Assembly (NCBI GenBank): GCA_044892505.1
Contig: CM097882.1
Location: forward strand, 41,354,001 to 41,418,000
Source: Schmidtea nova
Taxonomy: Eukaryota
DNA length: 64,000 nucleotides
Reading direction: 5' to 3'
Positions 43,422-43,433 of this stretch are shown here, piece after piece (position 1 is the first letter of the stretch; the number at the start of each line of letters is the position of its first letter). Made by a program: the position numbers and the translations under genes. The notes under the pieces were generated by a model. That model searched no databases. It was not told where the DNA came from and saw only the letters and a list, made by a program, of their open reading frames with translations.

Positions 43422-43433
43422 GCCCGGATAGCT
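43422..43433 (-). promoter_or_regulatory. Putative PBS complementary to the 5' 12 nt of tRNA-Lys(UUU)
   Basis: The plus strand reads GCCCGGATAGCT and abuts the LTR end with zero spacer; this equals nt 1-12 of the conserved metazoan tRNA-Lys(UUU) as recalled. Confidence 0.7.

Follow-up and report, generated by a model that had tools for sequence, protein, structure and literature searches.

Long terminal repeat elements with an apparent primer site complementary to the 5′ end of host tRNAs: sequence analysis of a nested element in Schmidtea nova

Introduction

Three types of primer are distinguished for LTR elements in the available part of PMC6317226, namely a whole tRNA, a half tRNA and a self-primer. 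In canonical priming, used by retroviruses, most Ty3/gypsy elements and BEL/Pao, the 3′ CCA end of a host tRNA pairs beside U5. Half-tRNA priming is confined to copia lineages according to the same partial source, with which the accessible text of PMC10886601 agrees. The half-tRNA systems as partially described there (Drosophila copia, yeast Ty5, Osser, Bianca and fungal Helenus) share a 3′-truncated host tRNA, the lack of a TGG and a tRNA type that switches between lineages, and they pair with the anticodon arm of a half molecule of ~39 nt. In Tf1 and sushi, which are Ty3/gypsy chromoviruses, a 5′-terminal RNA piece of 11–12 nt lies at the LTR edge and a cut is needed at the end of the duplex; for Tf1, the primer is the first 11 nt of the element's own RNA and is freed by RNase H cutting an RNA duplex (PMC7175516, available part).

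The element analysed here carries, at the place of the primer-binding site, the complement of the first 12 nt of a host tRNA. It resembles the half-tRNA systems in lacking a TGG and in the switching of the tRNA type, and the match would imply a 3′-truncated tRNA as well, but it differs from them in that the site covers nt 1–12, the whole primer would be paired and the tRNA is Phe or Lys. With Tf1 it has in common the short 5′-terminal piece at the LTR edge and a presumed cut, whereas its partner would be a host tRNA acting in trans. As in canonical priming, a host tRNA lies beside U5 and the primer is seemingly copied, as it is in retroviruses; however, the opposite end of the tRNA is used, there is no TGG, a new 3′-OH is needed, pairing extends over 12 nt and there is no spacer. 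The arrangement works like a hybrid of the half-tRNA and Tf1 modes yet lacks the defining feature of each, and it may be a variant of truncated-tRNA priming, possibly a class of its own.

A primer site for tRNA nt 1–12 is not described in the open-access literature that we searched (Repbase Reports, subscription journals and supplements fall outside this scope), nor is such a site mentioned in the available portions of PMC3601003, PMC4600332, PMC5006619, PMC4402516 and PMC12859917. An earlier mention somewhere in the literature seems improbable to us, and the site is real, lineage-wide and apparently undescribed. If true, a 12-nt 5′-terminal tRNA primer would be a fourth primer type bridging the half-tRNA and Tf1 modes, and very short 5′ tRNA fragments would gain a replicative role. 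Programs that locate primer sites by searching for tRNA 3′ ends pass these elements over, a possible reason why the lineage has been overlooked.

Results and Discussion

Layout of the nested element

The window, by which we mean the whole stretch of 64,000 nt that was analysed, contains a young LTR element of 3,567 bp on the minus strand (39976–43542). Its LTR edge was set by a 108-nt repeat at 100% identity (39976–40083 and 43434–43541), and repeat comparison gives LTRs of 109 bp on the minus strand, the 3′ LTR at 39976–40084 reading TGT..ACA and the 5′ LTR at 43434–43542, whose first base deviates from the TGT..ACA found in other copies. A gag gene of 223 aa (42750–43421, minus strand), with two CX2CX4HX4C knuckles in its translation and no match in a Pfam search, overlaps a pol open frame of 862 aa (40225–42813, minus strand) that lies in the -1 frame relative to gag and encodes a protease, a reverse transcriptase (RT, with YIDD), DUF7047, an RNase H retaining the D-E-D-D residues and an H2C2-DDE integrase without GPY/F. 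DUF7047 occupies the place expected for the RT thumb, and likely represents it. A short polypurine tract is flush with the 3′ LTR (40085–40091, minus strand). A clean target-site duplication is missing from the window copy; its place at the 5′ junction (43543–43572, minus strand) is taken by short repeats of the bases with which the LTR begins, which suggests that one end underwent templated repair.

The putative primer site occupies 43422–43433, where the plus-strand letters are GCCCGGATAGCT. On the minus strand the 12-mer begins directly after the final base of the 5′ LTR (..CTCACA, 43434), without a spacer, and the gag ATG at 43421 comes immediately after it. Reading of this junction bears out the original prediction that the 12 nt abut the LTR, that the gag start comes immediately next and that no TGG-type site follows the 5′ LTR.

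Match of the 12-mer to host tRNA

The identification of the 12-mer with nt 1–12 of tRNA-Lys(UUU), proposed before any host tRNA had been consulted, holds for the host's own genes: these share the 12-mer as their first 12 nt, there are 681 exact matches of nt 1–16 lying in tandem arrays, and the genes were confirmed by ARAGORN. The C expected at position 7 of the CUU isoacceptor is likewise present in host tRNA-Lys(CUU). Pairing stops exactly at mature nt 1, with none to the 5′ leader, and exactly at nt 12, with none to nt 13. The longest complementarity between the element and tRNA-Lys(UUU) is these 12 nt, the next being 9 nt, and no additional tRNA-pairing box of more than 9 nt was found in the element. 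The probability of such a match arising by chance is 6e-6, or 4e-4 in any register, assuming 100 distinct tRNA 5′ ends. The 12-bp duplex has a predicted energy of -25.5 kcal/mol. The predicted net binding is -17.5 for the 12-mer, -16 to -18 for 5′ fragments and -7.4 for the whole unmodified tRNA, in a model that includes neither modifications nor tertiary structure. The tRNAs matched by the sites all begin with GCC and all have A9; m1G9, the modification borne by tRNAs with G9, would be expected to prevent both pairing and copying.

Counts of 5′-motif matches in the host genome were 681 for Lys(UUU), 2,511 for Phe(GAA) and 182 for Lys(CUU), in addition to an Arg(UCG) array. Very large tandem tRNA arrays are present at C3:72.78–72.93 Mb, C1:566.9 Mb, C2:333.4 Mb and C1:272.9–273.2 Mb.

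The element does not appear to supply the tRNA itself: no element-encoded tRNA was found in the window, nor in the 47 of 76 metagenome loci (see below) that were scanned. Self-priming of the Tf1 type deserves consideration, the length and the flush position of the site being typical of self-priming elements, but it would need a sense copy of the 12-mer, and there is none of at least 7 nt anywhere in the element; an other-strand copy of the site is also absent in 74 of the 76 metagenome relatives. We assign a negligible probability to self-priming and, equally, to the two explanations in which the site is no primer site for a tRNA 5′ end at all, namely a deleted TGG site and a chance match, both of which are ruled out by the junction counts given next.

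Families in the host genome

The 15-mer spanning the junction (the 12-mer plus the LTR end) occurs 387 times in the host genome, against 0 for a control. In the family of the window element (family A), 175 junctions were counted with the 12 bases left free; among the 100 of these that were listed, 81 have the exact 12-mer, 18 have 1–3 changes, 1 is unrelated and 0 have a TGG. Twenty copies were fetched, one of which is a head-to-tail tandem, and a 5-bp target duplication was present in 17 of the 19 that have both LTRs. In family B both the LTR, of 91 bp, and gag are different, and RT–RNase H identity with family A is 60%, but the 12-mer is the same: among 100 listed of its 201 junctions, 88 are exact and there is no TGG. 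Further families were obtained by a DUF7047 search, and 40 stretches were fetched; the 5′ LTR end could be placed in 35 of them by family LTR words. For families C–F, 29 of the 35 placed junctions carry a 12-mer fully complementary to the first 12 nt of host tRNA-Phe(GAA), five have one change and one is disrupted. In another family, G, both copies found match nt 1–12 of host tRNA-Lys(CUU). RT–RNase H identity among these families is 39–57%.

The geometry is therefore kept in six host-genome families besides that of the window element, one with Lys(UUU), four with Phe(GAA) and one with Lys(CUU), so that there are exact matches to the 5′ ends of three different host tRNAs, in the same register throughout. 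At 6e-6 per match, this rules out a chance match. A canonical site deleted in the window copy, which the original prediction had named as a way of being wrong, would have left a TGG elsewhere, and none exists in any copy or relative checked (0 in the 200 listed junctions of families A and B and in 57 relatives), while the 12-mer itself is conserved in place in family copies and in relatives at 39–60% RT–RNase H identity. Host match, conservation and the absence of TGG together support non-canonical priming from the tRNA 5′ end as originally predicted, with cleavage of the tRNA being postulated in addition. The strongest evidence is one that this prediction had missed: where the site changes, it changes to match the 5′ end of another tRNA.

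In contigs from four DNA runs of related organisms no difference was listed at the site, the sites being too few to count as evidence, and no RNA dataset with the element was among the listings of an expression search. In several families the G-run of the polypurine tract is separated from the TG of the LTR by two purines. Loci L270, L206 and L207 are head-to-tail tandem copies with a common LTR, in which the primer site is also present after the 3′ LTR, and L208 has a decayed tRNA-like stretch (1845–1930), with no ARAGORN call, between primer site and gag start.

Apparently recurrent conversion of the site

In five family-B copies a one-base difference makes the Lys(UUU) site a Lys(CUU) site. 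This change occurs three times among the 100 listed family-B junctions and its equivalent at none of the three remaining A/T positions, and the background rate predicts 0.2 copies with the Lys(CUU) base as opposed to the five observed, in a test that was chosen after the five copies had been seen. A family-B tree was built without the site after five duplicate or tandem rows had been dropped, and on it a single clade for the converted copies is rejected (AU p 1e-38). Parsimony gives five conversions, and the well-supported branches require at least two independent origins (p about 0.02 with two). Shared changes are likewise seen at 2 of the 971 other A/T positions, in one case across the main branch, so that recombination between copies can mimic recurrence. 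No Lys(CUU) conversion was seen in family A (0 of 7 genome-wide matches), and no conversion between Lys and Phe was seen inside any one family.

Copying of the primer into DNA would be expected to produce scattered Lys(CUU) copies, and the recurrent conversion seems to suggest that it is copied back into the site. In retroviruses the site is rewritten from the primer in this way, whereas Ty1 and Ty3 reportedly do not copy theirs (PMC7472051, in its available part).

Relatives beyond the host genome

Homologues were found in crustaceans, in a nematode and in many 4-kb metagenome contigs. Among 76 metagenome loci, some of which are near-duplicates, 57 include the gag start and 19 do not; the motif was used for the initial search, and loci negative for it were then checked by gag homology. 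The motif stands at the LTR edge in 56 of the 57 loci with a gag start, the remaining one being truncated at the contig start, and none has a TGG. The full form, GCC-N4-TAGCT, is found in 50 of the 56 sites and the other six have one or two changes, while the base directly after the 12-mer varies freely. A second motif in L244, which is not a junction, and a false call within pol (L204) were set aside.

Of the 50 full-form sites, 26 are the 5′ end of a tRNA (three such ends from the host genome and one from Drosophila tRNA-Phe); the other 24 are unmatched, and a literature search yielded no matching tRNA in print for them. The commonest form is the Drosophila tRNA-Phe 5′ end, which was taken from a probe given in the available part of PMC7038984. 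In a 50-row tree, in which the label of L285 is wrong (its true site is Lys(UUU)), Lys-type sites fall on three separate branches among Phe-type sites; the Phe-type site is the commonest, and the Lys-type is derived on three branches. A scan of IMG/VR gave one distant locus, L251, on a 4-kb contig of the viral catalogue, with 25% pol identity and without the motif, which is a possible outgroup.

The site is flush with the CA in 46 of 50 loci, and in most relatives the ATG is 0–40 nt away. Given this proximity a bound tRNA could affect translation, and one could imagine that tRNA is bound here to serve packaging, dimerisation or regulation of the gag start while the minus strand begins from another primer. 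Such a site need not be flush with the CA, however, nor end at nt 1 of the tRNA; the LTR edge offers no alternative primer site, and the repeated conversion to Lys(CUU) argues for copying. We regard a role other than priming as very unlikely.

A possible priming mechanism

The sequence comparisons taken together make it very probable that the primer is a 5′ fragment of a tRNA, however this is made. Since a 5′-terminal piece would otherwise be without a free 3′-OH, the tRNA must be cut or trimmed. Our preferred reading, which we consider reasonably probable, is that the 5′ strand of the tRNA is annealed to the site and cut after nt 12, in all likelihood by the element's own RNase H, giving a 12-nt primer. 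Inside the particle, the 5′ strand of the acceptor stem and the first bases of the D stem would pair with the site, aided by the two-knuckle Gag; if Tf1 is a guide, a cut at the edge of the RNA:RNA duplex would then leave a 3′-OH at U12, from which minus-strand DNA would begin with the TG of the LTR. Plus-strand strong-stop DNA would copy the primer and run off the 5′ end of the tRNA, and such copying would account for the abrupt end of the match at nt 1 as well as for occasional switches to the sequence of another tRNA. This reading predicts a defined RNA–DNA junction at U12.

The cut could also be made by the host. A 5′ tRNA fragment of host origin (a D-loop tRF-5 or a 5′ half) might anneal by nt 1–12 and lose its unpaired 3′ tail to a host nuclease; alternatively, a ready-made 12-nt fragment might be packaged. 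Predicted binding is much stronger for fragments (-16 to -18 kcal/mol) than for the folded tRNA (-7 kcal/mol), 3′-truncated tRNAs are used by copia and Ty5 (PMC10886601 and PMC6317226, both in their available parts), and a host-made fragment fits all the sequence evidence for the primer equally well. The edge is constant at nt 12 throughout the lineage, though, inside the D stem, which is not a usual fragment end, the ends of tRF-5s falling in the D loop or the anticodon loop; and the length and flush geometry of the site recall the RNase H-cut primer of Tf1. The Tf1 precedent, together with the RNase H catalytic motifs, which are kept in all or nearly all of 50 aligned pol proteins, leads us to favour a Tf1-like cut in trans over host-made fragments, which we hold to be unlikely but worth serious attention. 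The sequence evidence is alike for RNase H and a host nuclease as the cutter, and RNase H is favoured on these grounds of analogy.

The tRNA might instead remain uncut and prime from a 2′-OH near nt 12, as in a retron-like branch, or the 3′ end might lie at nt 10–11 with integrase trimming the last bases. The two purines between G-run and TG noted above for several families resemble ends trimmed by two bases, and MLV ends are trimmed in this way. Against this, the bases of the site that pair with nt 8–12 are its five most constant ones, which is partly due to how the sites were found, and we know of no LTR-element RT that primes from a 2′-OH. Both variants strike us as hardly probable, and we retain cleavage after nt 12 as the preferred reading.

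Classification

By its LTRs (TG..CA), its 5-bp duplication (4–6 expected), its knuckled gag and its PR-RT-RH-IN order the element is like Ty3/gypsy (Metaviridae), from which it differs by the lack of GPY/F and of Ty3-type RNase H profiles: PF17917 and PF17919 were found in none of 50 pol proteins, among the 25 listed of 29 families matched at E 0.1. No chromodomain, as would be looked for in relatives of Tf1, was found in the nested element. Profiles of the lineage score low against host-genome elements, the RNase H reaching 12 bits against gypsy and the RT scoring about equally against gypsy (35 bits) and BEL (31 bits). As for BEL/Pao, neither Peptidase_A17 nor a BEL-type RT was found in the 50 pol proteins apart from one weak match (E 0.02), and copia elements have IN before RT, in contrast to the order here. 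The Troyka/Kuafuorterviruses group is likewise an animal LTR lineage far from gypsy and without GPY/F, but assignment to it was rejected: in the available descriptions Troyka has CG..CG ends, a 3-bp duplication and (I/V/L)ADD, as against TG..CA, 5 bp and YIDD/YVDD here. Fold, structure and PDB sequence searches placed pol loosely near retroviral and caulimoviral RTs at 11–17% identity and gave no lineage name, and an Atlas search returned only unnamed DUF7047 clusters. To our eye the RT and RNase H motifs look DIRS-like, despite the LTRs and the DDE integrase. Since the pol gives no match to the Ty3-type RNase H profiles, the lineage may be unclassified as well.

The most comprehensive reading, which we advance tentatively as falling a little short of probable, is that these elements form an unclassified animal-wide lineage of minimal LTR elements of 3.5–4 kb, apart from Ty3/gypsy, BEL, copia and Troyka, whose RT would open tRNA-Phe or tRNA-Lys, cut it after nt 12, prime with the 12-mer and recopy it in each cycle.

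Some gypsy families of the host genome have single open frames of 3,200–5,000 aa and many near-identical copies (e.g. C1:3385858 and C2:299555711).

The surrounding element

The nested element is inserted in an older host element (32923–48967, minus strand) with 300-bp LTRs at 95% identity. The primer site of the latter (48664–48647) is of the ordinary TGG type, which we take to resemble tRNA-Trp, and provides an internal contrast to that of the nested element. No RT or integrase frame was recognised in 32923–48967. The order of its genes is gag, a fusion-glycoprotein-like gene of the Monjiviricetes type and protease, and such a gag-env-protease arrangement is unusual; the fusion-glycoprotein-like gene, which received the nested insertion, is disrupted by it and by stops. 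Elsewhere in the window, two diverged copies (80–92%) of another repeat lie 22 kb apart, at 860–1633 and 23045–23889.
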